Part shown: piece after piece, positions 17,055 to 32,806 of the stretch
How positions within the stretch are numbered: the first letter of the stretch is position 1
How the letters are laid out: every line of letters starts with the position of its first letter
Source: Deltaproteobacteria bacterium
GTDB taxonomy: Bacteria; Desulfobacterota; UBA8473
Direction: 5' to 3'
NCBI GenBank assembly: GCA_003599365.1
Contig: QZJR01000098.1
Coordinates: 1 to 44,137, forward strand
Length of the DNA: 44,137 nt
Position numbers and translations under genes: made by a program
Notes under the pieces: generated by a model
The model's input: the letters and a program-made list of their open reading frames with translations, nothing else
What the model was told of the DNA's origin: nothing
The model's database searches: none

Positions 17055-17361
17055 TCAAATGCTCCTTGATATTTCTCAATCTACTCAGTCTATAGGTAAT
17101 ATCACTGCCTATTTCTGCATCTAATTCATCTTGAGCAAATGTCTTTAGCAACTTGAATTCTGTTGATGTGATGCCAAGGAGGAGTATCTCTTTCCCAATC
17201 TTAAGTGCCGCTACCCCTTTTCTTGGTCCAAATGACCGATAAGCAAGAATGCTCATTAAACCCGCCTTATCCTGCTTCTTTCTGACGAAAAAGCCCATGA
17301 GAAGTATTAGTCCAATTACCGCTGCAAGGGCTATTATCATCTGGATGTATGCCCCTGTCAT
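17041..17361 (-). CDS. fliO: flagellar biosynthesis protein FliO
   Basis: 106 aa with a single N-terminal TM (IIALAAVIGLILLMGFFV). Lies between fliN and fliP. Confidence 0.7.
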   Translation of the reverse strand: MTGAYIQMIIALAAVIGLILLMGFFVRKKQDKAGLMSILAYRSFGPRKGVAALKIGKEILLLGITSTEFKLLKTFAQDELDAEIGSDITYRLSRLRNIKEHLSEYK

Positions 17362-17696
17362 TTTAGCTGCTTTATCCTTTCTGTAGGACTTATAATATCT
17401 GTCAATCTCACACCGAACTTTTCATTGACCACCACCACCTCACCTCTTGCCACAAGCTTATTGTTAACAAGTATCTCCATCGGTTCCCCTGCAATCTTTT
17501 CCAACTCGACAACCGAGCCCTGACCGAGCTGTAACAGGTCGTTTATAAGCATCTTTGTCCTGCCCAGTTCCACCGTTACCTGAAGCGGTATGTCGAGGAG
17601 AAAATCTATATCCTTCGTACCCATAAGTTTCTTATCTTCAGTCTTCAACTCTTCAAAGTCTACCTCATCAGGCAGCTGTTCTATCTTCTCTTCCAT
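17358..17696 (-). CDS. fliN: flagellar motor switch protein FliN
   Basis: 112 aa. SpoA-type C-terminus (IPLQVTVELGRTKMLINDLLQLGQGSVVELEKIAGEPMEILVNNKLVARGEVVVVNEKFGVRL). Confidence 0.9.
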   Translation of the reverse strand: MEEKIEQLPDEVDFEELKTEDKKLMGTKDIDFLLDIPLQVTVELGRTKMLINDLLQLGQGSVVELEKIAGEPMEILVNNKLVARGEVVVVNEKFGVRLTDIISPTERIKQLK

Positions 17697-17710
17697 TGCG
17701 AACTCCTTTT

Positions 17711-17758
17711 GTTTAGGCTGTAGCCTAACAGCCTACAGCCTACGGTCTATCTACCTGT
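17711..17758. repeat. type D repeat between fliM and fliN
   Basis: gtttaggctgtagcctaacagcctacagcctacggtctatctacctgt. Hairpin aggctgtag/ctacagcct. Shares both ends with 9198-9274. Confidence 0.85.
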
Positions 17759-17766
17759 ATTTAAGA

Positions 17767-18738
17767 TTACACAAGCCCCCCTGTTATTTTTATAGCCTGA
17801 CTTCCCCTGCTATATCCAGGAACCCCGCTAAACTTCGGAATATCCTCTACTCTGATGACAAGCTCATCCGTTATGGATTTGCCGAGACTAATCACACTGC
17901 CTACCTCAAGACTCATCAAATCCCAAAAAGGAATTTCCACCCTGCCCACTTCTGCCACAACCTCAACATGAGAATCCATAAGCATTGTCCTCAACCTCTC
18001 AATCCATCTATGGTCAATCTCAAATTTATCGCTCTGGATGCCTGAATAGAGCTTTTCCTTAACAGGTTCTATCACAGAATAGGGGATACAGAAGAAAATC
18101 TTTCCTGTGAAGTCTTCAATCTCTAAATCAATTTCTACTTTTATTACTATCTCACTGGGAGTAACGATCGTCACGAATTGTGGGTTCATCTCAGAGCCAA
18201 TATACTTTGGAGCAATCGGTGCAACAGCATTCCATGCGAGTGACATATCATTTAAAGCAACTGTCGTAACCTTCTTGATAATCCTCTGTTCTATAGCTGT
18301 GAATGCCCTTCCTTCAGACTTAACATTCTGTGCGCTGGCACCACCAAAAAAAAACTCTACGAATGCAAAAACCAGGGGGGCCTCGATCACAAAAAGCGAG
18401 TAGCCTTTGAGCGGATCCATCTTAAATATATTAATACTTGATGGGAAAGGAATTCTCTTCATAAATTCCCCAAACTTTATAATTCCTATATTGCTTACAC
18501 TTACATCAACAAATCTCATGATGAGGTTTGAGACTGAGTTTCTGAAAAACCTTGAAAACCTCTCATTGACGATTTCGAATCCCGGCATTCGCCCACGAAC
18601 TATCCGCTCCTGATTAGTAAGGTCATAGGGCCTGACACCTGCAAGTATCTTATCCCTTGCCGTTTCTGTGTCTATTTCTCCTGACTGCACCCCCTTAAGG
18701 AGCGCATCCACTTCTTCCTGTGATAATATGTCGTTCAT
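17767..18738 (-). CDS. fliM: flagellar motor switch protein FliM
   Basis: 323 aa. N-terminal CheY-P binding peptide LSQEEVDALL, followed by the FliM middle and SpoA domains. Confidence 0.93.
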   Translation of the reverse strand: MNDILSQEEVDALLKGVQSGEIDTETARDKILAGVRPYDLTNQERIVRGRMPGFEIVNERFSRFFRNSVSNLIMRFVDVSVSNIGIIKFGEFMKRIPFPSSINIFKMDPLKGYSLFVIEAPLVFAFVEFFFGGASAQNVKSEGRAFTAIEQRIIKKVTTVALNDMSLAWNAVAPIAPKYIGSEMNPQFVTIVTPSEIVIKVEIDLEIEDFTGKIFFCIPYSVIEPVKEKLYSGIQSDKFEIDHRWIERLRTMLMDSHVEVVAEVGRVEIPFWDLMSLEVGSVISLGKSITDELVIRVEDIPKFSGVPGYSRGSQAIKITGGLV

Positions 18739-19232
18739 TGCATTATAAACTCCGTGAAATAGAGATTCTTGAAAACACCTTTCCCTATTATCTGATTAGC
18801 CCTGAGAAGAAGCTCATCCTTTAATTGAAACTTACCTTCAGGGCTTGATAAGGATTCGCTATCCTTGCTGCTTATAAGGATAATAATGGCATCCCTTAGC
18901 TTAGGGATTTTATCCAAGACTATTGGTTGATACGACTTATCAGTAAGTTCGAATTGCATGCTTAATTTCAAAAACCTCCCCTGTTCTGCAAGATTCATTA
19001 CAAAAGGGTCAAGGGAGACAAACATGTCCTTCCCCGAACTTTCTTCTTTCTTATGCGCTGCAGTGTCTGCCTTCTCCTTCTCACCATAGAGCATTATATA
19101 GGCAAGGAAACCACTTGCTAACAAAAGTAAAATTGCACCGGCGATTATTATCAGCTTCTTATTGCCCTTGACGGGTTGTTTCTGTTGAGACTGTTCGGCT
19201 TGGATATCAAGCGTTTCTTCTGTTATGTCCAT
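18735..19232 (-). CDS. fliL: flagellar basal-body-associated protein FliL
   Basis: 165 aa. Single TM (LIIIAGAILLLLASGFLAYIML) and FliL-type C-terminal domain (FVSLDPFVMNL...FLKLSMQFEL). Overlaps the fliM start. Confidence 0.85.
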   Translation of the reverse strand: MDITEETLDIQAEQSQQKQPVKGNKKLIIIAGAILLLLASGFLAYIMLYGEKEKADTAAHKKEESSGKDMFVSLDPFVMNLAEQGRFLKLSMQFELTDKSYQPIVLDKIPKLRDAIIILISSKDSESLSSPEGKFQLKDELLLRANQIIGKGVFKNLYFTEFIMQ

Positions 19233-19253
19233 TTATATTCTCCTAAATCATAT

Positions 19254-19386
19254 GGTTTTGGGTTTTGAGTTTTATCCATTTTGAGTTTATTTAGAGTTTA
19301 GGATTTAGTGTTTAGGATTTCCTCCCCCTCATTTTAAAACTCTACATCCTAAATAAATCCAAAGCTAAAAATACAAAACTCAAAAC
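19254..19386. repeat. imperfect long inverted repeat in the fliL leader
   Basis: ggttttg ggttttg heptamers and tttaggattt x2 on the left. gttttgagtttt (19262-19273) pairs with aaaactcaaaac (19375-19386). Confidence 0.8.
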
Positions 19387-19402
19387 ATAATTTATCTTAT
19401 GT

Positions 19403-19418
19403 ATCAAAAACTATGCCC
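19403..19418 (-). promoter_or_regulatory. candidate sigma-54 (-24/-12) promoter for the fliL operon
   Basis: The minus strand reads GGGCAT-AGTTT-TTGAT. This has the same architecture as the motifs at 39512-39527 and 32737-32752. The -12 element is TTGA instead of the consensus TTGC. Confidence 0.35.
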
Positions 19419-19518
19419 AATAGAAACATGTTGAAAATAGAGTGTTTTTTTAATAATCCCTGATTAAATATGTGTCAAAGAAATGACTAAGGGATAGATT
19501 TTTAACTGATATTCCGAC

Positions 19519-19545
19519 TAAAGTTTTTTAAACATATCCCGATAG
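19519..19545 (+). promoter_or_regulatory. sigma-28 (FliA) dependent promoter
   Basis: TAAAGTTT (19519-19526), an 11-nt spacer, then CCCGATAG (19538-19545). The enterobacterial consensus is TAAAGTTT-N11-GCCGATAA and the Bacillus sigma-D consensus is TAAA-N15-GCCGATAT. Confidence 0.7.
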
Positions 19546-19641
19546 ATGTAGTAAGGGACGATTCAGTAATCCAAATTGTAACTATTCAGCCATAACATGC
19601 CCAATGGCATTGACTGTTTTTGTGTCCCTAAGGTAGATAAC

Positions 19642-19839
19642 ATGACAATATTTCCCTTTCAGATTAATGAGGCAATGCATGCTTATAACAGGGTATCAAA
19701 ACTTAAACCCTCGGTCCTTCTTGAGAAAGAGCAGGGAGAGCCACATGATATTATAAATATATCGGCAGAGGCAAAAAAGAAGCAAATTATCGGACAGGCT
19801 AAAACCGAGGTGTTGGAAAGGATAAGAGAAACAAAATAA
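19642..19839 (+). CDS. small hypothetical protein, first gene after the sigma-28 promoter (weakly FlgM-like)
   Basis: The ORF track starts at 19597. The ATG at 19642 follows AAGGTAG. The 65-aa product contains DIINISAEAKKK, reminiscent of the D-x-V-x-L-S-x-E-A segment of FlgM, but the C-terminal sigma-28 binding helices are not recognisable. Confidence 0.4.
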   Translation: MTIFPFQINEAMHAYNRVSKLKPSVLLEKEQGEPHDIINISAEAKKKQIIGQAKTEVLERIRETK

Positions 19840-19840
19840 G

Positions 19841-20476
19841 ATGGATAAAAAATTTTTTAAGATATTAGTAGCAGATGATGATGAGATACCACGAGATATT
19901 GTCAGCAGTATTCTCTGCAAAGAGGGGTATTCTGTTGTGTCGGCAACAAATGGCATTGAGGCTATAAATATTCTCAGACTTGAGGATATAAACCTCGTTA
20001 TAACTGATCTCAGAATGCCCGGAGCTGATGGGCTTGATGTTCTTAAGCACGCTCTGATAATCAATCCTGAAGCCGCCGTTGTTATACTCACTGCTTATGG
20101 AACGCTGGATACCGCACTTGGGGCAATAAAAGGAGGAGCATATGATTACCTGACAAAACCGTTCAAGGTTCAGGAGATACTCATTCTTGCGGAAAGAGCA
20201 TATAAACGGGTGGAATTAATAAATGAAAACAGGGAATTAATCAAACATCTCAGGGATATTTATGGTGACATCGAGGTAATAAAGACAGTTTCGGGGAGTA
20301 ATAATCCCCTAATTATAACAGGTTGGATAGAGAGGATAGAAAGATTAAAGGAGATGAATATCCTTTCAGCACAGGAATCGGAAAAATTAAAGAAAAGGTT
20401 GATTAGGGGGAATGGAAATGGGAATGGAAAAGGGAAAGGGAAAGAGAAAAGGGGGGGGAAGAGTATTGATAGTTGA
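19841..20476 (+). CDS. response regulator receiver protein with helical C-terminal extension and G/N/K-rich tail
   Basis: 211 aa. ILVADDDEIPRD, NLVITDLRMPGADG, VVILTAYG, YLTKPF. The tail GNGNGNGKGKGKEKRGG is encoded by a hexamer-repeat purine tract. Confidence 0.85.
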   Translation: MDKKFFKILVADDDEIPRDIVSSILCKEGYSVVSATNGIEAINILRLEDINLVITDLRMPGADGLDVLKHALIINPEAAVVILTAYGTLDTALGAIKGGAYDYLTKPFKVQEILILAERAYKRVELINENRELIKHLRDIYGDIEVIKTVSGSNNPLIITGWIERIERLKEMNILSAQESEKLKKRLIRGNGNGNGKGKGKEKRGGKSIDS

Positions 20477-21950
20477 TGATGACCCTCTCGTGAGAGGTGT
20501 CCTCTCGGATATATTTTATAATGTTGGTGGCTATAAAACCGATGTTGCTGCAGATGGTTTTGACGGAATAGAAAAGATCAAAAATAACGAATACGATATT
20601 GTTTTTGCAGACATGGCAATGCCAAGATTGAATGGTATGGATTTTCTGAGAGAGATAAAAAAGATTAACCCCTCTATGCCTGTGGTTATAACTACAGGCA
20701 TTCCCTCTATAGACATGGCGGTAAATGCCATAAAAGAAGGTGCACAGGATTTCATAACAAAACCATTCAGGATTGATACGGTAATATCTATTGCAGACAG
20801 GATAACCGGTGAAAAAAAACTTTTAAACAAACTTGCGGTAAAAGATGATTACGAGGCATCCGTCGGGGAGCTGAAAGCAGAGCTTTTTAAGAAACTTCAG
20901 GAGATAGGCATCTTACAATCCATAAGCACTGAGCTTGATGGCCTGTGTGATAATAAAGAGATATTCGAAAGGATTGTAGCGATGGCATCAAAGCTCTTTA
21001 TGGTAAAAGAGGCATCCTTTGGCGCTATTGAAAATGGGCACCTGAAAATAAAGGGAAGCATAGGGACAATGGTAAAAGATATTTCCATTGCGAACAGTAT
21101 TTTTGAAAATGTGATAAAGAAAAAAACCTTTTGCCTTGCCTCATTGGGAGAGGTTAATCCCCACAATGGCACTCTTCTTACCTCCCCTTTTCTTTCGGTC
21201 CCCCTTACTATGAATAATGAGGTCTTTGGAATTCTGAACCTCTCAAACAAGGCAGACGGGACTGCATTCACAGACGATGAGATACGTTTTGCGCTTACCT
21301 TTGCAGAGAAAGCGGCCATGAGAATAGAGAACAACGCCCTTTATGAAGTCTTTTATACCAATCTCATGAATACATTGAAATCACTGGTCATCAGTATCGA
21401 GGCCAGAGATCCCTATACAAAGCATCATTCAGAAAGGGTTAGTTTATATTCCCTTCAGATTGCAGATGTCATAAATCTGGGTGCGGAAGATAAGGATGCT
21501 ATAAAGTTTGGCGGCTATCTCCATGACATAGGAAAGATAGGTGTCAGGGACACCGTTCTCGTGAAGCCAGGGATGCTTACACCCGAAGAAACGACAGAAA
21601 TCAGGCTGCATCCCGTTATAGGGTATAATATATTAGAACCTTTGAGGTTTTTTCCTAACGAGATGGATATTATTCGACATCATCATGAGAGATTCGATGG
21701 CAGTGGTTATCCAGATGGTCTTGCATGCGATAAGATTCCCCTTATCGCGCGAATCGCTGCCGTTGCCGATACTTATGACGCTATGACATCCTCGAGGCCG
21801 TATAGAAATGCAATGTGTCATGATGCTGCAATAAAAGAGCTAAAAAGATGTTCATCTTCTCAGCTTGAAGATGAGATTGTTCTTGCATTTTTGCAAACAC
21901 CGGCAGGGAAGGGGGGGGCAAGGTTATCACTAGAGAGGACAACACATTGA
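20412..21950 (+). CDS. REC-GAF-HD-GYP c-di-GMP phosphodiesterase-type response regulator
   Basis: 512 aa. Receiver (VLIVDDDPLVRG, DIVFADMAMPRLNG, ITKPF), a central GAF-like region, and HD-GYP motifs (HHSERV, GGYLHDIGKIGV, HHERFDGSGYPDGL). The start is uncertain (ATG at 20412, 20418 or 20424). Confidence 0.88.
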   Translation: MEMGMEKGKGKRKGGGRVLIVDDDPLVRGVLSDIFYNVGGYKTDVAADGFDGIEKIKNNEYDIVFADMAMPRLNGMDFLREIKKINPSMPVVITTGIPSIDMAVNAIKEGAQDFITKPFRIDTVISIADRITGEKKLLNKLAVKDDYEASVGELKAELFKKLQEIGILQSISTELDGLCDNKEIFERIVAMASKLFMVKEASFGAIENGHLKIKGSIGTMVKDISIANSIFENVIKKKTFCLASLGEVNPHNGTLLTSPFLSVPLTMNNEVFGILNLSNKADGTAFTDDEIRFALTFAEKAAMRIENNALYEVFYTNLMNTLKSLVISIEARDPYTKHHSERVSLYSLQIADVINLGAEDKDAIKFGGYLHDIGKIGVRDTVLVKPGMLTPEETTEIRLHPVIGYNILEPLRFFPNEMDIIRHHHERFDGSGYPDGLACDKIPLIARIAAVADTYDAMTSSRPYRNAMCHDAAIKELKRCSSSQLEDEIVLAFLQTPAGKGGARLSLERTTH

Positions 21951-22492
21951 GATTGGAACAAAATGAGCCGGAAGCACGTGGATATTTCCGGGTGGATGAT
22001 GTTTTTCCCGTGATCTCAAGGAAGGTGACGGAAGATTCTCCATATAGGAAATCGAAGGTCTTTCCAGGATATAGTATGGAAATTTCCTATATGGATGTGT
22101 CTGATGGGACAATAAATCCACAATTATGGAAGATGCTGGTTGATATTAACACAAAGCTTGGACTGATACTTGAGCACCTGCAACTGGAGAGCGAGGGACT
22201 TATAAAGGCTGAAGACATGCCGGTTAATATTAGCGCATCGGGCATAAGATTCAAAATGAAGGAAAAGGTTGATATAGGGGATGTAATTGAGATAAAAATG
22301 CTTCTGCCCACATATCCTCCCGTCGGAATCCTTACCTATGGAAATATAGTACAGGTGAAGGATCTTGGAAACGGCGAATATGAAGTCGCCTTACATTTTT
22401 CTGATATGGATGATGAGGTAAAGGACGAGATAATCCAATATGCTCTCAAGCGCCAGAGAGAGATTCTAAGGAAGCACAAACAACAACTTTGA
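21947..22492 (+). CDS. PilZ domain c-di-GMP receptor protein
   Basis: 181 aa. RGYFR (RxxxR) at residues 11-15 and NISASG (D/NxSxxG) at residues 94-99. The TTG start overlaps the HD-GYP stop (TTGA). Confidence 0.8.
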   Translation: MRLEQNEPEARGYFRVDDVFPVISRKVTEDSPYRKSKVFPGYSMEISYMDVSDGTINPQLWKMLVDINTKLGLILEHLQLESEGLIKAEDMPVNISASGIRFKMKEKVDIGDVIEIKMLLPTYPPVGILTYGNIVQVKDLGNGEYEVALHFSDMDDEVKDEIIQYALKRQREILRKHKQQL

Positions 22493-22493
22493 A

Positions 22494-22506
22494 CCTGAGT
22501 AGTTAC
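22494..22506. repeat. solo CCTGAGTAGTTAC terminal-repeat motif
   Basis: Exact copy of the type A/B terminal motif immediately after the PilZ stop. No partner arm is nearby. Confidence 0.8.
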
Positions 22507-22519
22507 AGGGAAATGATGT

Positions 22520-23287
22520 TTGATGGACCGTGCAAGCGTTATGGGAATTATTTTCGGGATAGCTGCAATTGTTGGCGGGAATCTGTTCGAGGGGGGAAGG
22601 CTTGATTCTATCATGCAGCTAACCGCTGCGGTGATTGTATTTGGTGGAACATTTGGCGCGGTACTGTTGAGTTTCCCACTACGGGATATCCTGAAAGCCA
22701 TTTCCTCTCTCAGAGATATTTTTATGGATGGAAAGACAAATCCTGAAACTTCTATAAATAGCATTATCCGGTATTCAAATATAGTGAGAAGAAAGGGTTT
22801 AATTGCCCTGGAACCGGAGATATCTAAAATCAAAGACTACTTTCTCAGAAAGGCACTGAAACTTGCAGTTGATGGTATGGGGCCAAAAATACTGAAAGAG
22901 GCAATGGAGCAGGAAAACCTTACCTATGAAGAAGAGAGAAGACGGATAGCAAGGGTTTTTGAGACTGCTGGGGGGTTTGCGCCTACCATAGGAATAATAG
23001 GAGCGGTTTTAGGACTTATACAGGTGATGGAGAATCTTTCCGATCCCTCAAGACTCGGTTCCGGCATTGCTGTAGCCTTTGTGGCGACCATATATGGCGT
23101 TGGTTCAGCGAATCTGATACTGCTGCCAATATCAAAAAAACTATTAAATAAACTTAACCATGAACTATCTGTAAGAGAGATAGTGCTGGAGGGGGTTGTG
23201 GGAATACAATCCGGAATAAATCCGTACTACCTTGAAGAGAGCCTCAGGGTTTTTATAGAGAGGGATAGAACAAGGATTTCCAGATGA
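22520..23287 (+). CDS. motA: flagellar stator protein MotA, set 1 (PomA/MotP-like length)
   Basis: 255 aa (TTG at 22520 or ATG at 22523). MotA/TolQ/ExbB channel family, with four TM segments and the C-terminal segment GIAVAFVATIYGVGSANLILLPI. Confidence 0.9.
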   Translation: MMDRASVMGIIFGIAAIVGGNLFEGGRLDSIMQLTAAVIVFGGTFGAVLLSFPLRDILKAISSLRDIFMDGKTNPETSINSIIRYSNIVRRKGLIALEPEISKIKDYFLRKALKLAVDGMGPKILKEAMEQENLTYEEERRRIARVFETAGGFAPTIGIIGAVLGLIQVMENLSDPSRLGSGIAVAFVATIYGVGSANLILLPISKKLLNKLNHELSVREIVLEGVVGIQSGINPYYLEESLRVFIERDRTRISR

Positions 23288-23976
23288 GAAAGAGACGAAA
23301 GGTGGAGGATCATGACAATGCAGATAGGTGGGTTATATCATATGCGGACTTCATTACCCTTCTTTTTGCATTTTTCACAACCCTGTATGCCATCAGTAAT
23401 GTGGATTCAGGCAAGCTCAAGATGTTTGCAGGATCGATGAAGTCTGCCTTTAAGACAACGGGGACGGATAATTCTGCCGGTACCACCATTATAGAAGGCA
23501 TCAAACCTATAAATTATGCAGATGTTAGGCTTGAAAAGGATATCAGGATAACATTTGAAAAATTTGGTAAGCTGGAGGGAATTAGTATCTCAAGAGATGA
23601 AAGAGGCGTCTCAATATCCTTTGGAGATTCTGTTCTTTTTGATACAGGTTCAGCAGTGATTAAGGATGAAGCAGAACCGTTGCTCTTATCAGTAATATCT
23701 GTTATAAAGAGGACACAAAACAATATAATAGTTGAGGGACACACAGATAATATACCTATAAAGTCTAAATACCTTTCAAACTGGGAATTATCCACAGCAA
23801 GGGCTGCCGGTGTCCTTATGTATATTCTGAAAGAAAATAATAACATGAGCCCGGAAAGATTTTCCACCTCAGGATATGCGGAATATCGTCCGGTTACATC
23901 CAATGTGACCCCTGAAGGAAGGGCAAAAAACAGGAGGGTAGATATAGTATTTGTCAGCAACAGATATGGTAGCTAA
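23284..23976 (+). CDS. motB: flagellar stator protein MotB, set 1 (OmpA-like C-terminus)
   Basis: 230 aa. RWVISYADFITLLFAFF contains the conserved channel Asp. The peptidoglycan-binding domain has GHTDN, NWELSTARA and NRRVDIV. Confidence 0.9.
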   Translation: MRKRRKVEDHDNADRWVISYADFITLLFAFFTTLYAISNVDSGKLKMFAGSMKSAFKTTGTDNSAGTTIIEGIKPINYADVRLEKDIRITFEKFGKLEGISISRDERGVSISFGDSVLFDTGSAVIKDEAEPLLLSVISVIKRTQNNIIVEGHTDNIPIKSKYLSNWELSTARAAGVLMYILKENNNMSPERFSTSGYAEYRPVTSNVTPEGRAKNRRVDIVFVSNRYGS

Positions 23977-25435
23977 AATACTCTTTATTGATGGCAGTCC
24001 TTTTGGCCATGATCTGATAAAGATGTCCTTCAGCAGGCATCCGACGGATTATCATCTGGAATTCGTATCTACAGCAAAGGAAGGGTTTGAAGTCATCAAA
24101 AGGGAACAGGTAAAGTGCATTTTTGTCAGTCAGGAACTCCCTGACATGGATGGATTTGAATTCCTAAAAGAAGTTAAGATGCTGAAGATTCAGGCGCCCG
24201 TGATTATGATGGCAATAGATGAAGCCAAAATGGTAGTTGCTGAGGCGCTGGAGAAAGGCGCAGAGGATTGTGTGACCAAGAGCCTAAAAACCTTCAGGGC
24301 ATTTCCTTCCATATCTGAGCGTTCCCTTTTCAGATATAGACATAAACTAAGCAGTGAGAGGACCAAGAGAGATAAGTTCATTATCCAACGTCAGAAACAG
24401 TGGAGGGCAATTATCGACGCCATAACAGACTTTATTTTTGTGATAGACGACGATTACAGGTTAAGGAGGGTAAATAGTGCACTCGCAAAAGTCTTAGGTA
24501 TGCATCCAAAGGAACTTGTAGGCAAGAGATGCAGCGACTTAGATAACATCATAGATGTACCTGATGAACGCTGCCTAAAAGATGTTATAAAGGATGGCAC
24601 TCCATATATTTATGAAAAAAACATAGGTAACGATACATATCAGATAAGTATATTCCCTCTGTATGACGATGATAGGCCCATGACAATTCATGTAATGAAA
24701 AATATCACCGAAATGAAGAGATTAAAGGAGCAATTATATCATTCCTATAAACTCGCATCCCTGGGTCTTCTGGTCTCAGGGGTTGCCCATGAGATTAACA
24801 ACCCGCTAACAGGAATAATCGCCTATACAGAGCTTCTCGGGATGAGTGTCGTGGATGAAGAGACCGGTAAGAAATTAAAAAAGATAATGTACAGCGCTGA
24901 GCGGTGTAAGAAGATTGTCGAAAACTTGCTTACATTCTCGAGGCAGAAAAACCCATCAAAGAGCCTTGAGTCAATGAATGATATTATTGATAGGATCGTA
25001 GATTTCAGGGGGTACTGGCTTGGAGTAAATAACATCGTGATCGAGAAGGATTATGATGTTATTTCTACTGTCCTTGTCGACTCACAGCAGATTCAGCAGG
25101 TAATCCTCAATATCCTTCTCAATGCCGAACATGCGATAGTTGACTCTAATGTAGATAATGGAAGAATTAAATTTACCACAAGGTATGATCGGGACAATCG
25201 TAAGATAATAATAAAGATTTCTGACAATGGTCCCGGAATCCCACAAAATATAATCTCGAGCATATTCGATCCATTCTTCACCACAAAGCCTGCCGGCACC
25301 GGAACAGGATTGGGCCTTTCCATATCCCACGGTATAATTGTTGAACATGAAGGCAACATAATGGTTGAAAGTTCTGAAGGAAAAGGCACTACCTTCTTTA
25401 TAGAGATTCCTTTAGCTAAGTGCTCTGGACCATAA
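23951..25435 (+). CDS. sensor histidine kinase with degenerate N-terminal receiver, PAS, HisKA and HATPase domains
   Basis: 494 aa (TTG at 23951 or ATG at 23966). PAS (WRAIIDAITDFIFVIDDDYRLRRVN), H-box HEINNPLTGI, G-boxes DNGPGI and GTGTGLGLS. Confidence 0.88.
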   Translation: MSATDMVAKILFIDGSPFGHDLIKMSFSRHPTDYHLEFVSTAKEGFEVIKREQVKCIFVSQELPDMDGFEFLKEVKMLKIQAPVIMMAIDEAKMVVAEALEKGAEDCVTKSLKTFRAFPSISERSLFRYRHKLSSERTKRDKFIIQRQKQWRAIIDAITDFIFVIDDDYRLRRVNSALAKVLGMHPKELVGKRCSDLDNIIDVPDERCLKDVIKDGTPYIYEKNIGNDTYQISIFPLYDDDRPMTIHVMKNITEMKRLKEQLYHSYKLASLGLLVSGVAHEINNPLTGIIAYTELLGMSVVDEETGKKLKKIMYSAERCKKIVENLLTFSRQKNPSKSLESMNDIIDRIVDFRGYWLGVNNIVIEKDYDVISTVLVDSQQIQQVILNILLNAEHAIVDSNVDNGRIKFTTRYDRDNRKIIIKISDNGPGIPQNIISSIFDPFFTTKPAGTGTGLGLSISHGIIVEHEGNIMVESSEGKGTTFFIEIPLAKCSGP

Positions 25436-25458
25436 ATTCGGTGACGTATTTTCGGCTT

Positions 25459-25509
25459 CACCCCCACCCAAACCCTCCCCCTTGAAGGGGGAGGGTTTGG
25501 GTGGGGGTG
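25459..25509. repeat. perfect 23-bp stem / 5-nt loop hairpin (type E core)
   Basis: cacccccacccaaaccctccccc ttgaa gggggagggtttgggtgggggtg. It is related to the C-rich/G-rich cores at 16001-16037 and 32271-32350. Confidence 0.9.
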
Positions 25510-25558
25510 GATTATCCTTATGCAACCGTATTTATGAAACAGACCACTAAGAAATAGC

Positions 25559-25682
25559 GTAACCGTTAACGGTTCTCAGTTTGCAGTTTACGGTAATTAC
25601 AACAGCAGGCTTAAGCCCGCTGTTATATAAAGCTTGAAGCATTTTTGCCAACTGTTAACTGCAAACCGTGAACTGTGAACGG
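25559..25682. repeat. type C intergenic repeat, full copy
   Basis: gtaaccgttaacgg...gtaattacAACAGCAGGCTTAAGCCCGCTGTTatataaagcttgaagcatttttgccaactgttaactgcaaaccgtgaactgtgaacgg. It is near-identical to 39537-39696 and to the reverse complement of 32807-32937. Confidence 0.92.
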
Positions 25683-25725
25683 ATAACAAATAGCCTGGAG
25701 GAGTAAATGTGGAGAGGTATTCATT

Positions 25726-26577
25726 ATGTTCGTCATTATAGGCATAGTTGTAGTTTTAGGTTCTATCATCGGTGGTTTCTTGATGGAGGGAGGCAACCTC
25801 CATGTACTTTTTCAGCCTGCTGAACTGGTTATTATATTTGGTGCATCTATCGGCGCTTTCTTCATAGCCTCTCCCTCGAGGGTTGTGAAGCTTGTTGTCA
25901 AACATATTACCTTGATAATAAGTTCTAAAGAGCAGAGCAAGGAAAAATACCTGGAAATTCTCTCTCTCCTGTATCAATTATTCTCAAAGATAAGAAAGGA
26001 GGGACTCATATCAATAGAATCCGACGTTGAGGCGCCTGATAAGAGTGCAATCTTCAACAAATACAAAAGTGTCATGACAAATCTCGATATCATTAACTTT
26101 CTATGCGATAATGTGAAGGTAATTATAACAACAAATGTCCCTCCACACGAGCTCGAAGACTTAATGGAACTCGAAATAGAAACCCATCACCACGAGGCTA
26201 TGGTTCCATCCCGCAGTCTTGCTAAGATAGCAGATGCTCTGCCTGGGCTTGGTATTGTTGCTGCGGTTTTGGGTGTTGTCCTCACTATGGGTAAAATTGA
26301 CCAGCCCCCTTCAGTGCTTGGGCATTGCGTAGGCGCTGCCCTGGTGGGAACATTTCTTGGGGTGTTAATGTGCTATGGCTTCGTCGGCCCAATGGCGACA
26401 AATCTTGAATATAAGGTAAAAGAAGACAGTGTATATTTTCAGATTATAAAAGTAGCGCTGGTAGCATTTGTTGGAGGTTCACCGCCACAGATGGCGGTAG
26501 AATTTGCCAGAAGGGCGATACCGGGCAAGGAGAGACCAACCTTTGATGAACTGGAAAAGGGGATACGGGATGGATAG
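25726..26577 (+). CDS. motA: flagellar stator protein MotA, set 2 (enterobacterial MotA-like)
   Basis: 283 aa. The N-terminus MFVIIGIVVVLGSIIGGFLMEGGNLHVLFQPAELVIIFGASIGAFF closely parallels E. coli MotA. Confidence 0.92.
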   Translation: MFVIIGIVVVLGSIIGGFLMEGGNLHVLFQPAELVIIFGASIGAFFIASPSRVVKLVVKHITLIISSKEQSKEKYLEILSLLYQLFSKIRKEGLISIESDVEAPDKSAIFNKYKSVMTNLDIINFLCDNVKVIITTNVPPHELEDLMELEIETHHHEAMVPSRSLAKIADALPGLGIVAAVLGVVLTMGKIDQPPSVLGHCVGAALVGTFLGVLMCYGFVGPMATNLEYKVKEDSVYFQIIKVALVAFVGGSPPQMAVEFARRAIPGKERPTFDELEKGIRDG

Positions 26578-26586
26578 ATAAAAAAA

Positions 26587-26666
26587 GGATTCAAGGGGTC
26601 AAGGGGTCAAGGATTCGAACGACACGATCCTGCTCTGCTTTGTGCCTTTGCCACTTTGTGCCTGAC
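26587..26666. repeat. type B-related repeat with tcaagggg octamer pair
   Basis: ggattcaaggggtcaaggggtcaaggattcg ... ctgctttgtgcctttgccactttgtgcct. Confidence 0.85.
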
Positions 26667-26684
26667 CGGAAGAGATCATTTCAA

Positions 26685-27482
26685 ATGAAGGATAAAAATA
26701 TAATTATCAAGAAGGTAAAGAAACAGGCGGAAGAAGGTGACCACGGTGGGGCATGGAAGGTTGCATACGCAGACTTTGTTACTGCCCTAATGGCATTCTT
26801 TCTGCTGATGTGGCTTTTAGCCATGATAGCCCCTGAAAAAAGGATGGGTCTTGCTTCATATTTTAAGGAATTCACGGTGTTCAATGAGAGCGGTCAATCC
26901 TTCATGGGAAAAGAGAGCGAGGTCTTTAATGAGGCTGGTAAAGCTCTCAGAAAGGTTCCACGTGAATTACAGGGGACATATAATATGAAACCCGAGGAAT
27001 TTAGGGAAGTAATAAAGAAAGCTATCGAAGAAAAACTCGGTGACATTAAAGACCAGATAATAGTAGATACATTTGAGGGTGGAGTTCGTGTTCAGTTAAT
27101 GGACAAAGAAGGGAGGCCAATGTTCGACCTCGGTTCAACAAAGCCTACGTCCCTTGCGGTAAGGATATTACGGGTAATCGGAGACAACATAAAATTACTG
27201 CCGAATTCTGTCGCTGTAGAGGGTCATACCGATTCATTGGTATATGGCTCTAAAGGTTACGGCAACTGGGATCTATCTACAGAACGTGCATTGGCGGCAA
27301 AAAAGGAACTGGAAAAAAATGGGCTTGAACCTAAGCGCCTTATCAGAGTCGCAGGCTATGCAGATACAGTGCCCCTTGTAAAAGAAAACCCGAAGGACCA
27401 GAGGAATAGAAGAATAAGCATAATGCTCATGTTCCCTGATAGATCAGAGAATCCAGAATCCAGGAGTCATAAGTCAGAATGA
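26685..27482 (+). CDS. motB: flagellar stator protein MotB, set 2 (OmpA-like C-terminus)
   Basis: The start is moved from 26640, which lies inside the repeat, to the ATG at 26685 (MKDKNIII...). AWKVAYADFVTALMAFFLLMWLL carries the channel Asp. GHTDS, NWDLSTERA, NRRISIM. Confidence 0.9.
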   Translation: MKDKNIIIKKVKKQAEEGDHGGAWKVAYADFVTALMAFFLLMWLLAMIAPEKRMGLASYFKEFTVFNESGQSFMGKESEVFNEAGKALRKVPRELQGTYNMKPEEFREVIKKAIEEKLGDIKDQIIVDTFEGGVRVQLMDKEGRPMFDLGSTKPTSLAVRILRVIGDNIKLLPNSVAVEGHTDSLVYGSKGYGNWDLSTERALAAKKELEKNGLEPKRLIRVAGYADTVPLVKENPKDQRNRRISIMLMFPDRSENPESRSHKSE

Positions 27483-29023
27483 AAAGATTATTGACATTAT
27501 CAGTAGTTCTTGCCTCACTCTTATTCTTGTCTGCACGATTGACTGCTGATGATGTTTCCCCTGACAAGCAGGAAGCTCAAAAAGTTCAGAGGACTTCGGA
27601 TAATAATTCGTCAGATCGTGAAGGGGCTGATATTATTATATTAATGGATAGTTCAGGAAGCATGAAAAAGACCGATCCCCAAGATTATAGACAGCCGGCG
27701 GCAAAGCTCTTTGTATCCCTCCTTGGGGAAAGTGATCGTATAGGAATTATAAGTTTTGGGGATTCAGCTAGGGTTTTGGCATCTCTTACAGAGGTCACCA
27801 AGAAAAATCGCGAGGTACTATTTAATACTATCAACAAAATATCTTCAAAGGAATCTTCTACAAATATCTATGATGCCGTAAAAAAAGGGTTTGATGAGCT
27901 TAAATCCTGTCAGAAGAAAAGCAGGATTATCATTCTGATGTCTGATGGCAAGCTTGCATTAGGTTCAAAGAAAAAAGACGATGCGGCCTTTACGGAACTA
28001 TCCGGAATTCTACCCGAGTTGACAAAGTCCAATATCAAGCTCTATACCGTAGCCTTTACAGAAATATCCGACGTGAAACTTCTCGAGGACATGGCAAAGG
28101 AAACAGGGGGATTTTTTAGATTTGCTAAAGATGATAAGGATATCCATCTAATATTTGCATCAATCTTTGAGAAGATTAAATCTCCGAATACCATTCCTTT
28201 AGAAGGTGAGACCTTCGAGACAGACAAGGATATAAAGGAGGCGATATTGCTCATTAGTAAGACACCCGGAACATCCACCGAACTCATAGATCCATCAAGA
28301 GTGAAACATACCTCCATGAAATATGGAAAGAACATAGAATGGTATAAGTCAAACATCTTTGATATGATTACCATTAAGGAACCTGCCGTGGGAAAATGGA
28401 AGGTGAAACTAAGCTCCAGAGAAGGGAATAAGATATATGTGATAACAAACCTTAATCTTAAAACTTCCTTTGACAAGAGCTTTGTTTATAAAGGAGATAA
28501 AATAAAGATTGACGTTTGGCTCGAAAGAGATGGCAAAATATTAACAGAAAAGGATGTTCTTAGACAGGTATCCTTCTCTTCTGAAATAGCTACTCCCGGT
28601 AGAGAAAGTGTGAAATTGGATCTCCTGGACAATGGAAAATATGGAGATGATAAGCCTGATGATGGGATATCCTCCCGTGAGTTTGTGGTTAACGAAGGAG
28701 GAGAATATGCCATTAAGGTAACCGCAAAAAGTATAACATTCAAGAGAGAAAAAGTTATTCAGTTTAAGGCTGTTTCAAAACCTGCACAGTTGGCAAAACA
28801 GATAACACTTTCTAAACCCCCATTGAAGAAAAAGACCCTGTCTGAGACAGATGTTTCATGGAAATCAGTTCTCGTTAAATTTGGCATGATAAACCTGTTA
28901 TTACTATTTATAGTTACAATTATATATCTATACAAGAAATACAAAAAGGATGGGTTTTTAAAAATAGGGTGGTTAAAAAAGTTATATACTTTATGGGATA
29001 CTGGCAATGATGATAAAGATTGA
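27479..29023 (+). CDS. exported von Willebrand factor A (vWA) domain protein with C-terminal membrane anchor
   Basis: 514 aa. Signal-like N-terminus (LLTLSVVLASLLFLSA), MIDAS DSSGS (27647-27661) plus downstream T and D positions (SSTNIYDAV, ILMSDG), a beta-rich middle region, and a C-terminal TM (MINLLLLFIVTIIYLY). The start overlaps the motB2 stop (ATGA). Confidence 0.85.
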   Translation: MKRLLTLSVVLASLLFLSARLTADDVSPDKQEAQKVQRTSDNNSSDREGADIIILMDSSGSMKKTDPQDYRQPAAKLFVSLLGESDRIGIISFGDSARVLASLTEVTKKNREVLFNTINKISSKESSTNIYDAVKKGFDELKSCQKKSRIIILMSDGKLALGSKKKDDAAFTELSGILPELTKSNIKLYTVAFTEISDVKLLEDMAKETGGFFRFAKDDKDIHLIFASIFEKIKSPNTIPLEGETFETDKDIKEAILLISKTPGTSTELIDPSRVKHTSMKYGKNIEWYKSNIFDMITIKEPAVGKWKVKLSSREGNKIYVITNLNLKTSFDKSFVYKGDKIKIDVWLERDGKILTEKDVLRQVSFSSEIATPGRESVKLDLLDNGKYGDDKPDDGISSREFVVNEGGEYAIKVTAKSITFKREKVIQFKAVSKPAQLAKQITLSKPPLKKKTLSETDVSWKSVLVKFGMINLLLLFIVTIIYLYKKYKKDGFLKIGWLKKLYTLWDTGNDDKD

Positions 29024-29483
29024 TGCCCTTTATTTTCTGCTGCTTATTCAGTTTTCAGTGATACTGCTGGTATCGGCAGTATACCTTTTTTTGAAGAATA
29101 GGATGTATAGAGCGCTAAATCTGAAAACGTTAAAAGAACTTGCAGAGGCAAAGAATACTATAAAGGAATCGGAAATGTTAAAAGCAGAGGAACATAAACA
29201 GAGACTGGAAGTAGAGGAAGTGCAGGAAGTAAAAGCCACTGAAGAGTTGCAGGTTCCTCAGGGGGGGGGTGAAGCTGTTGATGAAGACAGGTATATTGAA
29301 ATATTAAGGGATAGGGATGAATTAATAACAAAGGTGAAGGAATTTGAGGATAAATTACAGGAAAAAACCAAACTGTTGGATGAAATACAGAAAAAGTATG
29401 AGGGGAAAGAAGAGGAATATGCAAATCTGGAAAAAGAATATTTGATCTTGTACAGACGGCAGCAAGATCAAGGGCTGCCTTAA
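29007..29483 (+). CDS. membrane-anchored coiled-coil protein
   Basis: 158 aa. N-terminal TM (ALYFLLLIQFSVILLVSAVYLF) followed by E/K-rich heptad-like sequence. Overlaps the vWA gene by 17 nt. Contains a G9 tract. Confidence 0.6.
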   Translation: MMIKIDALYFLLLIQFSVILLVSAVYLFLKNRMYRALNLKTLKELAEAKNTIKESEMLKAEEHKQRLEVEEVQEVKATEELQVPQGGGEAVDEDRYIEILRDRDELITKVKEFEDKLQEKTKLLDEIQKKYEGKEEEYANLEKEYLILYRRQQDQGLP

Positions 29484-29485
29484 CC

Positions 29486-29558
29486 GGTAACCGTTCACTG
29501 TGAACGGTTACCTGCTTTGTGCCTATGTGCCTTTGCCACTTTGTGCCTAAGTAGTTAC
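29486..29558. repeat. 27-bp palindrome (29486-29512) plus type B repeat ending in CCTAAGTAGTTAC
   Basis: ggtaaccgttcac t gtgaacggttacc, followed by tgctttgtgcctatgtgcctttgccactttgtgcctaagtagttac. Lies between two convergent operon ends. Confidence 0.9.
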
Positions 29559-29569
29559 GTTTACTATAA

Positions 29570-30859
29570 TTATCTCTTCAGATTCACAAGTTCCTGCATC
29601 AGTTCATCAGTTGTAGTTATTACCCTCGAATTTGCCTGAAATCCCCTTTGTGCAGAAATCATCTTCACAAATTCTTCTGCGAGGTCAACATTGCTGAGCT
29701 CAAGGTTATTCGAAAGAATTCTGCCAAGACCTGATGTGCCTGCCTTACCAACAATTGGTATGCCTGAATCAAAGGACTCTGCATAAAGGTTTCTCCCGAG
29801 CTTTGTCAAGCTTGCCGGTGCAACAAATCTTGCCGGTGCAATCTGTCCTATTCCCCTTGTCTGGCCATTGGTGAAGGCCCCTGTTATTATCCCCTCCTCT
29901 GAAATAGCCATGTTCTTCAAAGACCCGGATGAATAACCATTCTGACTTATGTTCATAACGGTAAAATCCGATGCAAACTGCGTTGTGCCATCAAATCCAT
30001 CACCAACCGGAGTTTCACCCGTACCTGTTCCGTAGTTAAACTCTATAGTCTGCGGAGTGGTTACGGAAGCCCCAAAATTGAAATTTATTGCTGTTCCGCT
30101 GTTGTCGTTAATAAGCGCACCACCTGTATTGAATGTTAGGGATTGGGTGCCGGCATCAACAAGCAATGAAGAATCAGCAGGGTCCTGATGAACATAATGG
30201 ACATCCCATGCGTTATCGCCGGTCTTAATAAAATATAATGTTACCTGATGAGCTCCCCCCTGAGAGTCGTATACGGAAATAGTTGTAGAAGAATTATAAT
30301 TAGCAGGATCGTTATCGACGGTATCCCCATTTCCATCCAATGTAAAAGCAGCAGATGGAACAGCAGCAGATGCCTTTAAATTTACTGCGATGTCCGAACT
30401 GCTTGTTATATTGGCCGGGCTTTGCCTGCTTGTTATCTGCAAATTGCCTATGGTTCCGGTTATATTTCCAGATGCATCGGCGAGATACCCCTGAAGGGCC
30501 AAACCATCGGGATTTACAATATTTCCGTCTTTGTTAAGGGAAAACTGGCCGGCTCGAGTGTAATGTCTTGTACCGTCTTCGCTAACAATAAAGAACCCGT
30601 CTCCATCAATAGCAAGGTCAAGGGCACTTGCCGTAGTCTCAAATGATCCCTGTGTAAAGACAGGTGATGTCTCGCTTATAAACACTCCACGACCTACCTG
30701 TAATGAACCACCAACAATGCCGCTCAATACATCCCCAAAAGATATCCTGCTTCCCTTAAACCCTACGGTATTCATGTTCGCAATATTGTCTCCGATAACG
30801 GAAAGGGATGTACCATTTGCATTCATACCACTTATTGCCGCAAAAAGTGATGTTAACAT
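29570..30859 (-). CDS. flgE: flagellar hook protein FlgE
   Basis: 429 aa. N-terminus LFAAISGMNANGTSLSVIGDNIANMNTVGFK and C-terminus LELSNVDLAEEFVKMISAQRGFQANSRVITTTDELMQELVNL are typical of hook and rod family proteins. Confidence 0.93.
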   Translation of the reverse strand: MLTSLFAAISGMNANGTSLSVIGDNIANMNTVGFKGSRISFGDVLSGIVGGSLQVGRGVFISETSPVFTQGSFETTASALDLAIDGDGFFIVSEDGTRHYTRAGQFSLNKDGNIVNPDGLALQGYLADASGNITGTIGNLQITSRQSPANITSSSDIAVNLKASAAVPSAAFTLDGNGDTVDNDPANYNSSTTISVYDSQGGAHQVTLYFIKTGDNAWDVHYVHQDPADSSLLVDAGTQSLTFNTGGALINDNSGTAINFNFGASVTTPQTIEFNYGTGTGETPVGDGFDGTTQFASDFTVMNISQNGYSSGSLKNMAISEEGIITGAFTNGQTRGIGQIAPARFVAPASLTKLGRNLYAESFDSGIPIVGKAGTSGLGRILSNNLELSNVDLAEEFVKMISAQRGFQANSRVITTTDELMQELVNLKR

Positions 30860-30872
30860 CTACTGTCTCCTT

Positions 30873-31241
30873 TCAAATATTTCCGTATAGTTCTTTAATT
30901 TCCCCAAGGGGGAACTTCTTGCCATTGTCCAATACAAGATAGGTAATGCTATTTTCAAAATTAACCCCGGCAACCTTTCCTGTGCTGCCATCCTGTGTCG
31001 TAACGTTCCTTCCCATGAGATTTATGGCCATGCTGTTGTTAAGTGAGCTTTGATATGTAAGCAGCTCTTCAATCTTTTTATTCATGTTGAATAACTGCTC
31101 GAGAGAACTGAACTGTGCAAGTTGTGCTGTAAATTCCGCACCTTGCACAGGGTTAAGTGGATCCTGGTACCTTAGTTGAGAGGTAAAAAGCTTCAGAAAA
31201 TCATCCTTTCCTAATGTCTTTCCAACAGTTGAAATGTCCAT
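30873..31241 (-). CDS. flgD: flagellar hook assembly (cap) protein FlgD
   Basis: The start is moved to the ATG at 31241 (MDISTVGKTLGKDDFLKLFTSQLRYQDPLNP), preceded by GGAGG. The longer ORF-track start lies in a repeat. Confidence 0.88.
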   Translation of the reverse strand: MDISTVGKTLGKDDFLKLFTSQLRYQDPLNPVQGAEFTAQLAQFSSLEQLFNMNKKIEELLTYQSSLNNSMAINLMGRNVTTQDGSTGKVAGVNFENSITYLVLDNGKKFPLGEIKELYGNI

Positions 31242-31258
31242 ATCTTTCCTCCTTTTCC

Positions 31259-31370
31259 GACTTAGGTTCAAAGTTCCGGGGTTCACGGTTCAACGGTTTA
31301 AGATAATTATTAAGCATTTCACTCAAACCTCTGAACCCGTGAACCTTGAACCCTAAACCTGAATAGTTAC
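31259..31370. repeat. type A hairpin element (left end truncated), right end CCTGAATAGTTAC
   Basis: cttaggttcaaagttccggggttcacggttcaacgg ... cccgtgaaccttgaaccctaaacctgaatagttac. Confidence 0.88.
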
Positions 31371-31387
31371 GAATTTTCTCACGCGAT

Positions 31388-32722: not shown

Positions 32723-32736
32723 ATTGTTAATTAACT

Positions 32737-32752
32737 ATCAATAAGTATGCCA
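32737..32752 (-). promoter_or_regulatory. candidate sigma-54 (-24/-12) promoter upstream of fliK
   Basis: The minus strand reads TGGCAT-ACTTA-TTGAT. The predicted start site lies only about 4 nt before the annotated ATG at 32722, which weakens either this call or the chosen start codon. Confidence 0.3.
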
Positions 32753-32806
32753 GGTAATCTACTAATAACCAAATTCCCAGCAACGATAATCAAGCAGTCT
32801 TCGTAT

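Follow-up and report, generated by a model that had tools for sequence, protein, structure and literature searches.

In this study, we analyzed a 44,137-nt stretch of DNA from a Deltaproteobacteria bacterium (contig QZJR01000098.1 of assembly GCA_003599365.1; hereafter the window) and found a block of 11 same-strand open reading frames (ORFs), o1 to o11, at positions 19597-29483 of the + strand. By gene order, this block is a conserved flagellar operon of Thermodesulfovibrio-type Nitrospirota. Its core consists of the nine genes o1-o9, predicted to encode a small protein, a receiver (REC) protein, a REC-GAF-HD-GYP response regulator, a PilZ protein, the stator pair MotA1B1, a PAS kinase, and the stator pair MotA2B2. 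It is probable that the block is a late, FliA-dependent operon providing the two stators along with a phosphorylation-controlled brake or stator selector responding to cyclic di-GMP (c-di-GMP). The function in stator selection or braking is suggested by analogy with characterized motor systems.

A first-pass annotation of the window had described the block as ten genes behind one near-consensus FliA promoter. We counted 11 ORFs, and the list given in that annotation already contained 11 items. The junctions that it gave (19839/19841, 20412-20476, TTGA at 21947, ATGA at 23284, 23951-23976, ATGA at 27479, and 29007-29023) were all reproduced, and its domain assignments and gene order were recovered by Pfam and by motif reading of the translations. 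Thus, its description of a compact, same-strand, FliA-headed cluster combining an HD-GYP response regulator, a PilZ protein, a kinase, and two different stator pairs was borne out.

The conservation of the gene order in related genomes, a check proposed in the first-pass annotation, was examined using o4, the PilZ protein, as the query. This protein had 323 homologues, and a profile scan over one genome per species gave 58 loci; all 11 window proteins were then mapped to the 58 loci by tblastn. The nine-gene core was syntenic across Thermodesulfovibrionia and not scattered, and the sigma-28 motif was conserved at its head only. The complete o1-o9 order was observed in 15 species-level genomes, mostly metagenome-assembled genomes (MAGs) labelled Nitrospirota/Thermodesulfovibrionia, and the complete modules showed about 50-70% protein identity to the window. 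About 10 further species-level genomes had a consistent order that was cut by a contig end or in which one gene was undetected. The homologues were named as Nitrospirota or Thermodesulfovibrionales. Reduced forms were also found: MotA1B1 was missing in three species-level genomes, the kinase in two, and both o2 and the kinase in five (MAGs labelled Deltaproteobacteria or Deferrimicrobium). Only PilZ-MotA2-MotB2 was present in eight genomes (the Magnetobacterium clade and others), and a motA-motB-PilZ arrangement with a MotA1-like stator was present in six (Sedimenticola, Thiodiazotropha, and Chromatiaceae). In these last six loci (L049, L051-L053, L056, and L057), which belong to sulfur-oxidizing Gammaproteobacteria, the PilZ homologue, at 26-29% identity, lay directly 3' of motA-motB, and a sigma-28-like sequence, TAAAGTT[TC]-N11-xCCGCTA[AT], was observed 5' of motA in four.

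In every variant found, the PilZ gene adjoined a stator gene. In most relatives, the kinase gene separated the two stator pairs, and it was never present without the REC protein o2. The neighbourhood of the module differed between genomes: it lay between flagellin/FlaF/FlbT and fliJ-fliI in locus L060, and between a TPR gene and TauE/IleS in locus L061. The module therefore appears to move as a unit. The distribution among genomes suggests that PilZ was first paired with MotA2B2, and that MotA1B1 and the kinase were added between them.

At the head of the block, we observed the sigma-28 (FliA) promoter motif TAAAGTTT-N11-CCCGATAG at 19519-19545 on the + strand. It agreed with 14 of the 16 positions of the consensus used for scoring, TAAAGTTT-N11-GCCGATAA, and the pattern TAAAG-N15-CCGATA had its sole exact match in the 44 kb at this position. 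The sigma factor expected to act at this promoter in trans is encoded in the same window, by a fliA gene that is part of the surrounding flagellar cluster (9256-10095, − strand). Its product matched Pfam sigma-70 regions 2, 3, and 4, and scored 239.6 bits against TIGR02479 (FliA/WhiG), for which the cut-off is 189.6. The near-consensus FliA promoter described in the first-pass annotation is thus confirmed as a motif, unique in the window and accompanied by its cognate sigma factor gene. In a scored scan of 33 related loci, 28 had a motif agreeing with 13-16 of the 16 positions directly 5' of the o1 homologue; in deltaproteobacterial-type loci, the head motif took the form TTAAGxTT-N11-TCCGATAA. 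When internal FliA promoters were sought across the loci by the same scoring, 5' of PilZ, motA1, the kinase, and motA2, only background values were obtained; 5' of PilZ, the kinase, and MotA2, the mode was 10 and the maximum 11-13. Because the head motif recurs in 28 of 33 loci and the scores elsewhere stay at background, the head promoter appears to be kept by selection, with no internal FliA promoter kept. One candidate in the gap between the kinase and motA2, TAAAGCTT-N11-GCCAACTG, was rejected as a FliA promoter, its 11 of 16 positions being a background value. No sigma-54 site was found in this 290-nt gap.

The first-pass annotation had also stated that the larger gaps are filled with repeats, and both gaps contained them. 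The 290-nt spacer between the kinase and motA2 (25436-25725, + strand) carries a palindrome, an inverted repeat, and heptamer repeats. The palindrome (25459-25509), just 3' of the kinase stop codon, is a perfect GC-rich pair of 25-nt arms, CACCCCCACCCAAACCCTCCCCCTT/AAGGGGGAGGGTTTGGGTGGGGGTG, and was missing in both the 97% and the about 90% identical relatives; for this reason, it is regarded as a recent and possibly mobile insertion. Further downstream, a 35-nt inverted repeat with heptamer repeats occupies 25560-25685. The motA2-motB2 spacer (26578-26684, + strand) is filled by TCAAGGGG repeated 2.8 times and by a 26-nt unit, CTTTGTGCCTTTGCCACTTTGTGCCT, at 26638-26663, which occurs again at 29515-29548, just past the terminal hairpin of the operon. 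The other spacer repeats were shared only within the lineage of the window. In relatives, the kinase-motA2 spacer was about 40 nt, and the motA2-motB2 spacer was 3-19 nt in most cases. From this comparison, the large spacers are lineage-specific insertions of repeats and a palindrome. Folding of the RNA of the 290-nt gap predicted a pair of highly stable stem-loops that lack a U tract (−127 kcal/mol, z −9.4) and could stabilize the mRNA. A search for known RNA families, including riboswitches, over 19000-30000 found none, giving only spurious hairpin matches to microRNA models.

It is plausible that, in the window genome, one FliA-dependent transcript covers the whole cluster. The junctions are overlapping or tiny, a scan for terminator-like sites on the + strand found none in either of the larger gaps, and the spacers were short ancestrally. 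The end of the unit is marked by a terminator-like hairpin on the + strand (29486-29512), with a 12-bp stem and a weak T tract, convergent with flgE.

Two different stator pairs are encoded. MotA1 (o5, 22520-23287, + strand) is a MotC-type stator A subunit, with 293 bits against NCBIfam PRK09109 (cut-off 237). MotB1 (o6, 23284-23976, + strand) is a MotD-like stator B subunit, with Pfam MotB_plug and OmpA domains; its best NCBIfam match was MotD PRK09038, at 215 bits and under the cut-off of 283. MotA2 (o8, 25726-26577, + strand) is an E. coli-type MotA, with 393 bits against TIGR03818 (cut-off 304), and MotB2 (o9, 26640-27482, + strand; its start is probably ATG 26685) is an E. coli-type MotB, with MotB_plug and OmpA domains and a best NCBIfam match to MotB PRK09041 at 234 bits, slightly under the cut-off of 277. 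MotA2 shares 43% identity with E. coli MotA, and MotA1 shares 24%. On these family assignments, MotA2B2 is of the E. coli MotAB type and MotA1B1 probably of the MotC/MotD type. An origin of the two stators by tandem duplication was ruled out by the different equivalog families and by the difference in identity to E. coli MotA. In alignments with the E. coli proteins, the equivalents of MotA R90, E98, P173, and P222 and of MotB D32 were kept in both pairs. The nearest solved structure to MotA1 was MotA1 of Paenibacillus TCA20 (E 3e-62); because the coupling ion of the Paenibacillus TCA20 MotA1/B1 is disputed, the ion used by MotA1B1 cannot be inferred from this match.

The PilZ protein o4 (21947-22492, + strand; 181 aa; Pfam PilZ 9.3e-9) belongs to the YcgR/MotI/FlgZ-type family. 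Its c-di-GMP motifs, RxxxR and NxSxxG, read RGYFR and NISASG, and R11, R15, N94, S96, and G99 were invariant in 60 homologues. An identical protein is encoded in the MAG GCA_020062895.1. Most homologues are about 255 aa long and have an extra N-terminal beta-domain (about 75 aa, PilZN); o4, which starts just before RxxxR, has lost this domain, and its two closest relatives and a small number of further homologues are also without it. The AlphaFold2 model of o4 (predicted local distance difference test, pLDDT, 84) consisted of a PilZ barrel, a 25-residue inserted helix (residues 58-82), and a C-terminal helix (residues 156-180). When this model was searched using Foldseek, the top matches were to the tetrameric PilZ protein XCC6012 (3rqa and 3ph1; E 2e-6, TM-score 0.56-0.62), followed by MotI. 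The model of a full-length relative (P0014, pLDDT 83) had MotI/DgrA, PlzD, YcgR, and PP4397/FlgZ as its top matches. Furthermore, the only match of the family profile among the PDB sequences was MotI (E 0.005). Taken together, the models suggest that this PilZ subfamily combines features of the YcgR brake family with those of stator-binding tetrameric PilZ proteins.

The enzyme expected to control the ligand of PilZ is o3 (20412-21950, + strand), a response regulator with Pfam REC, GAF, and HD_5/HD domains and a putative c-di-GMP phosphodiesterase. Its HD-GYP domain is canonical, with LHDIGK and HHHERFDGSGYPDG (HHE..DGSGYP), and matched Pfam HD_5 with 3e-31; a partial NCBIfam match to the NosR-family response regulator c-di-GMP phosphodiesterase was also obtained. 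The preceding gene, o2 (19841-20476, + strand; 211 aa), encodes a stand-alone receiver (Pfam Response_reg 1.2e-25) with a C-terminal extension of about 90 aa after REC, in which the acidic pocket, the acceptor Asp, Thr, and Lys were present when read by eye. The translations indicate that the receivers of both o2 and o3 are real. The 5' end of o3 overlaps o2 within a (GGGAAA)x7 repeat at 20408-20453. This repeat spans the o2/o3 overlap and is read in two different frames, so that the tail of o2 is rich in Gly, Asn, and Lys and the N-terminus of o3 in Gly and Lys. The tblastn homology of o2 in relatives stopped near residue 190-200 of 211, which suggests that o2 is shorter there.

The histidine kinase o7 (23951-25435, + strand; start at ATG 23966 in the source annotation) is predicted to be cytoplasmic, with a pseudo-REC-PAS-HisKA-HATPase architecture assigned by Pfam. 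Its receiver has no acceptor Asp (FVSQELPDMDG) and is thus a pseudo-REC, and the H-box VAHEINNP is present. In the complete module of locus L060, the phosphodiesterase (9414-9983) has neither REC nor GAF and consists of a stand-alone HD protein of 189 aa, and the kinase and o2 are kept. This arrangement hints that o2, and not the phosphodiesterase, is the main partner of the kinase.

The first gene, o1 (19597-19839, + strand), encodes a small protein without a Pfam match and is conserved as the first gene in relatives. NF041863 was matched by 18 of 19 members of the o1 family (best E 3.5e-8), all under the curated cut-off of 40 bits, and the window o1 scored 21.8 bits. The matches are consistent although below the threshold, and o1 is provisionally placed in the DVU0524 'FlgM-associated' family. 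Because the homology starts at ORF residue 10-16 and the family has the consensus MT(I/V)FPFQ at its start, the true start of o1 is probably ATG 19642, giving about 65 aa.

The last two genes stand apart from the core. The product of o10 (27479-29023, + strand; Pfam VWA) is a predicted secreted protein with a signal peptide, a DSSGS metal-ion-dependent adhesion site (MIDAS) motif, and a C-terminal transmembrane (TM) anchor, and its start overlaps the motB2 stop (ATGA). Its partner o11 (29007-29483, + strand) has an N-terminal TM segment and a coiled coil, with no match to Pfam or to any other family; it is homologous to a gene of about 285 aa that follows the VWA gene in relatives L062 and L063. 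The first-pass annotation had counted this pair as part of the module. Homologues of o10 at 43-75% identity are common in Nitrospirota, and the pair was located 3' of motB2 only in the 97% and the about 90% identical relatives. In three relatives with long contigs, the VWA gene was located among housekeeping genes (HypA, dCMP deaminase, ffh, and rpsP), beside an unrelated kinase and receivers, and was followed by, or fused to, a 79-aa gene and the gene of about 285 aa. Because of these non-flagellar contexts in other Thermodesulfovibrionales, together with the linkage to motB2 in the two closest relatives only, we regard the pair as a relocated, lineage-specific cassette outside the conserved module. 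VWA as a conserved part of the motor was ruled out by the contexts of the three homologues.

From the gene content, motifs, synteny, and promoter conservation observed here, the following mechanism can be proposed. It predicts that the genes are co-transcribed, that the enzymes are active, and that PilZ binds c-di-GMP, and also which partner PilZ binds and in which direction the effect goes. The PAS kinase would sense an intracellular cue and phosphorylate o2, the REC-GAF-HD-GYP enzyme, or both. The phosphorylation would set the hydrolysis of c-di-GMP near the motor. When c-di-GMP is high, PilZ would bind the cytoplasmic face of a MotA pentamer, and the likeliest target would be the adjacent MotC-type MotA1, which is the first candidate because it adjoins PilZ and because FlgZ of P. 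aeruginosa offers a precedent in binding MotC. From the phyletic pattern of PilZ-MotA2B2, PilZ could equally act on MotA2. Binding would brake or displace the stator and thereby change how fast the motor turns or the proportions in which it contains the two stators, and activation of the phosphodiesterase would release the brake. A bolder version, which we advance only tentatively, can also be outlined. The PilZ protein might be a hybrid of YcgR and tetrameric PilZ, located under the MotA pentamers and picking the MotCD-like or the MotAB-like stator in a c-di-GMP-dependent manner. The relay of PAS kinase, REC, and HD-GYP, encoded between the stator genes, would then set the local c-di-GMP, and the whole would work as a self-contained device for stator exchange, controlled by a phosphorelay and moving as one operon.

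Several points weigh against the proposal of a FliA-dependent stator operon with a built-in brake or selector. All functional steps for these proteins are predicted from sequence. No diguanylate cyclase is encoded within the o1-o11 unit. Both MotB1 and MotB2 score under the curated equivalog cut-offs. Variants without MotA1B1, the kinase, or o2 exist; therefore, the parts are separable, and the target of PilZ could be MotA2 or the rotor. The window PilZ is without the PilZN domain found in YcgR, FlgZ, and MotI, and its mode of action may differ. Finally, the stable hairpins 5' of motA2, in the 290-nt spacer, could lead to attenuation or processing of the transcript, or the spacer could conceal a promoter of another type, and a sigma-70-type promoter is possible in the gap, such hexamers being common in the AT-rich DNA here.

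This last point leads to the alternative that, in the window genome, the block is divided into two or more transcription units, one at 19.5-25.4 kb and another at 25.7-29.5 kb, with an unrecognized promoter in the 290-nt spacer driving motA2B2, VWA, and o11. A perfect 25-bp hairpin immediately after the kinase stop codon, a second long stem-loop in the same spacer, and the frequency of sigma-70-like hexamers in the window would fit such a division. However, the gap hairpins have no U tracts and the scan gave no + strand terminator in the gap, the top sigma-28 match there is at background and no sigma-54 site is present, and the palindrome is a recent insertion that close relatives do not have; moreover, spacers of about 40 nt in relatives are too short for a promoter plus a leader. 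We thus consider two units unlikely. A related question is whether the VWA and TM coiled-coil proteins serve the motor as genuine accessory parts, having been recruited recently in this lineage; a periplasmic scaffold for MotB2 would be one example. The overlaps of the VWA start with the motB2 stop and of o11 with VWA, which are the same in two independent close MAGs, speak for it, but the cassette resides among housekeeping genes in other Thermodesulfovibrionales, and about 23 other complete or near-complete modules do without it. This possibility appears very remote.

Two further alternatives concern the role of PilZ. Its main role could be structural, as a stator scaffold or chaperone of the tetrameric PilZ (tPilZ) kind, such as FlgX; it would then be located under the MotA pentamers and be needed for assembly, with c-di-GMP tuning it at most and no brake involved. 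The o4 model is closest to the tetrameric XCC6012 and has the inserted and C-terminal helices, PilZN is missing in o4 as in tPilZ proteins, the PilZ gene always adjoins stator genes, and the tPilZ protein FlgX contacts each stator unit (PMC11725899). Nevertheless, most members of the family have two domains and are structurally nearest to MotI, YcgR, PlzD, and FlgZ, the c-di-GMP motifs missing from FlgX are invariant in the o4 family, and the co-encoded phosphodiesterase points to a reversible, ligand-controlled action, which together make a scaffold role improbable. Alternatively, PilZ might act on the rotor (FliG/FliM), as in the 'backstop brake' of YcgR, or on chemotaxis; its adjacency to the stator genes would then reflect a grouping of late genes, with no stator selection. 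Binding of YcgR to FliG and FliM is reported in references within PMC4331095, and other non-stator late genes, o1 and the REC protein, are present in the operon. On the other hand, the adjacency of PilZ to a stator was kept in all reduced variants and in the distant gammaproteobacterial relatives, whereas other genes come and go, and the FlgZ-MotC and MotI-MotA precedents are stators. Action on the rotor or on chemotaxis is accordingly rather doubtful, and we retain the stator as the expected target of PilZ.

The whole window is a single large flagellar and chemotaxis region. The operon block is placed on the + strand between fliL and flgE, with the flanking flagellar genes on the − strand; in many bacteria, motAB is kept between fliL and flgE. 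On the + strand, 36-7300 carries chemotaxis genes encoding a methyl-accepting chemotaxis protein, CheR, CheD, a CheY-like REC, CheX, CheB, and CheA-W. The − strand genes at 7308-19232 encode DUF6115, CheZ, CheY, FliA, FlhG, FlhF, FlhA, FlhB, FliR, FliQ, FliP, FliO, FliN, FliM, and FliL, and those at 29570-44119 encode FlgE, FlgD, FliK, an FlbB-like protein, FliJ, FliI, FliH, FliG, FliF, rod proteins, a sigma-54 activator, a PAS kinase, and a TPR protein. CheX, CheZ, and CheD are thus present together. The product of 33038-33541 was weakly similar to FlbB (MgtE_N-like), a collar protein of spirochaetes, and that of 7308-7736 showed weak DUF6115/SpiroCoCo_C similarity. Tandem heptanucleotide repeats (GGTTCAC, AACCGTG, TGAACCT, AACTGTG, CTTTCAG, and similar) occupy the majority of the intergenic spacers in the window genome; they were observed at 3874-3974, 15955-15972, 16113-16133, 17722-17743, 19254-19385, 25650-25680, 31280-31360, 32809-32839, and 41058-41088, and resemble the short tandemly repeated repetitive (STRR) heptamers of cyanobacteria. 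Arrays of GAGTTGT (x3.6), TCTGACC (x4.4), and CTTTGAG (x4.6) were also present within the N-terminal part of the flhF coding sequence (11714-11878, − strand), and the frame stays open.

In model organisms, the genes linking c-di-GMP to the stators are scattered, within networks of dozens of cyclases and phosphodiesterases. The placement of stators, receptor, degrading enzyme, and kinase behind one promoter nominates a minimal dedicated circuit, and with it the candidate partner pairs: the kinase with REC or with HD-GYP, and PilZ with MotA1 or with MotA2. It also adds to the diversity of PilZ proteins one more candidate subfamily, with features of the YcgR brake and of the stator-binding tetrameric PilZ proteins. 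The organisms are mostly uncultured anaerobes. In the literature on Thermodesulfovibrio/Nitrospirae stators, PilZ, and HD-GYP operons, no description of such a unit was found, in agreement with the first-pass annotation, which knew of none characterized as a unit. The idea is less new than that annotation implied, since dual stators with a PilZ protein are known in P. aeruginosa; the single-operon arrangement itself appears to be undescribed.

PilZ proteins acting on motors have been described in several bacteria. P. aeruginosa has the stators MotAB and MotCD, and its FlgZ, once c-di-GMP is bound, attaches to MotC and affects the choice of the working stator (PMC9303241, PMC11725899); YcgR is the motor brake of E. 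coli (PMC11725899); MotI is a clutch on MotA of B. subtilis (PMC9303241, PMC11725899); and the tPilZ protein FlgX of C. jejuni sits beneath each MotA pentamer (PMC11725899). The window resembles P. aeruginosa in having two stator families, of the MotAB and MotCD types, and a YcgR-family PilZ protein with c-di-GMP motifs. It differs in that the stators and PilZ are in one operon, with the phosphodiesterase and the kinase built in, and in that its PilZ protein is without PilZN, has an extra long helix, and is from Nitrospirota and not Gammaproteobacteria. In Pseudomonas, the genes are scattered: motAB lies apart from motCD, which belongs to the che cluster, and flgZ follows flgMN.

The operon also shares its logic with the FliA regulon of E. 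coli and Salmonella (motAB-cheAW, ycgR, and pdeH). In E. coli, motAB, ycgR, and pdeH (yhjH) are transcribed from FliA promoters in separate operons, and by the class 3 logic of E. coli and Salmonella, sigma-28 co-expresses the stator, the PilZ brake, and a phosphodiesterase that keeps the brake off. Unlike the window, E. coli divides these genes among three transcription units, has only one stator type and no dedicated kinase, and uses an EAL phosphodiesterase that carries no receiver. MotI of B. subtilis (DgrA/YpfA; PDB 5VX6), which acts on MotA, was the best structural match of the full-length PilZ relative (E 5.5e-9); however, the identity is about 15%, MotI is without the inserted helix, and the window o4 is without the N-terminal domain. 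To our knowledge, motI lies outside any stator operon. Among the tetrameric PilZ proteins (XCC6012, PA2989, and FlgX), the o4 model is nearest to XCC6012, with a PilZ barrel and long helices, although this likeness comes from a monomer model; PA2989 is a tPilZ protein able to bind c-di-GMP, FlgX has no c-di-GMP motifs and binds no ligand, unlike what the invariant motifs of the o4 family would predict, and most members of the o4 family carry the PilZN domain that tPilZ proteins do not have. RpfC/RpfG is similar in that a single protein joins a receiver to an HD-GYP phosphodiesterase, with the gene of a histidine kinase close by. In the window, however, o3 has a GAF domain between REC and HD-GYP, an extra stand-alone REC is present, and the kinase is predicted to be soluble, with PAS and a pseudo-receiver, and is placed between stator genes. 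Taken together, the family of every component is already known, and the logic is as in E. coli and Pseudomonas. What appears to be new is the gathering of all these functions in one conserved FliA operon, with an embedded kinase-REC-HD-GYP relay, a hybrid YcgR/tPilZ-like receptor, and a conserved first gene, probably of the DVU0524 family.

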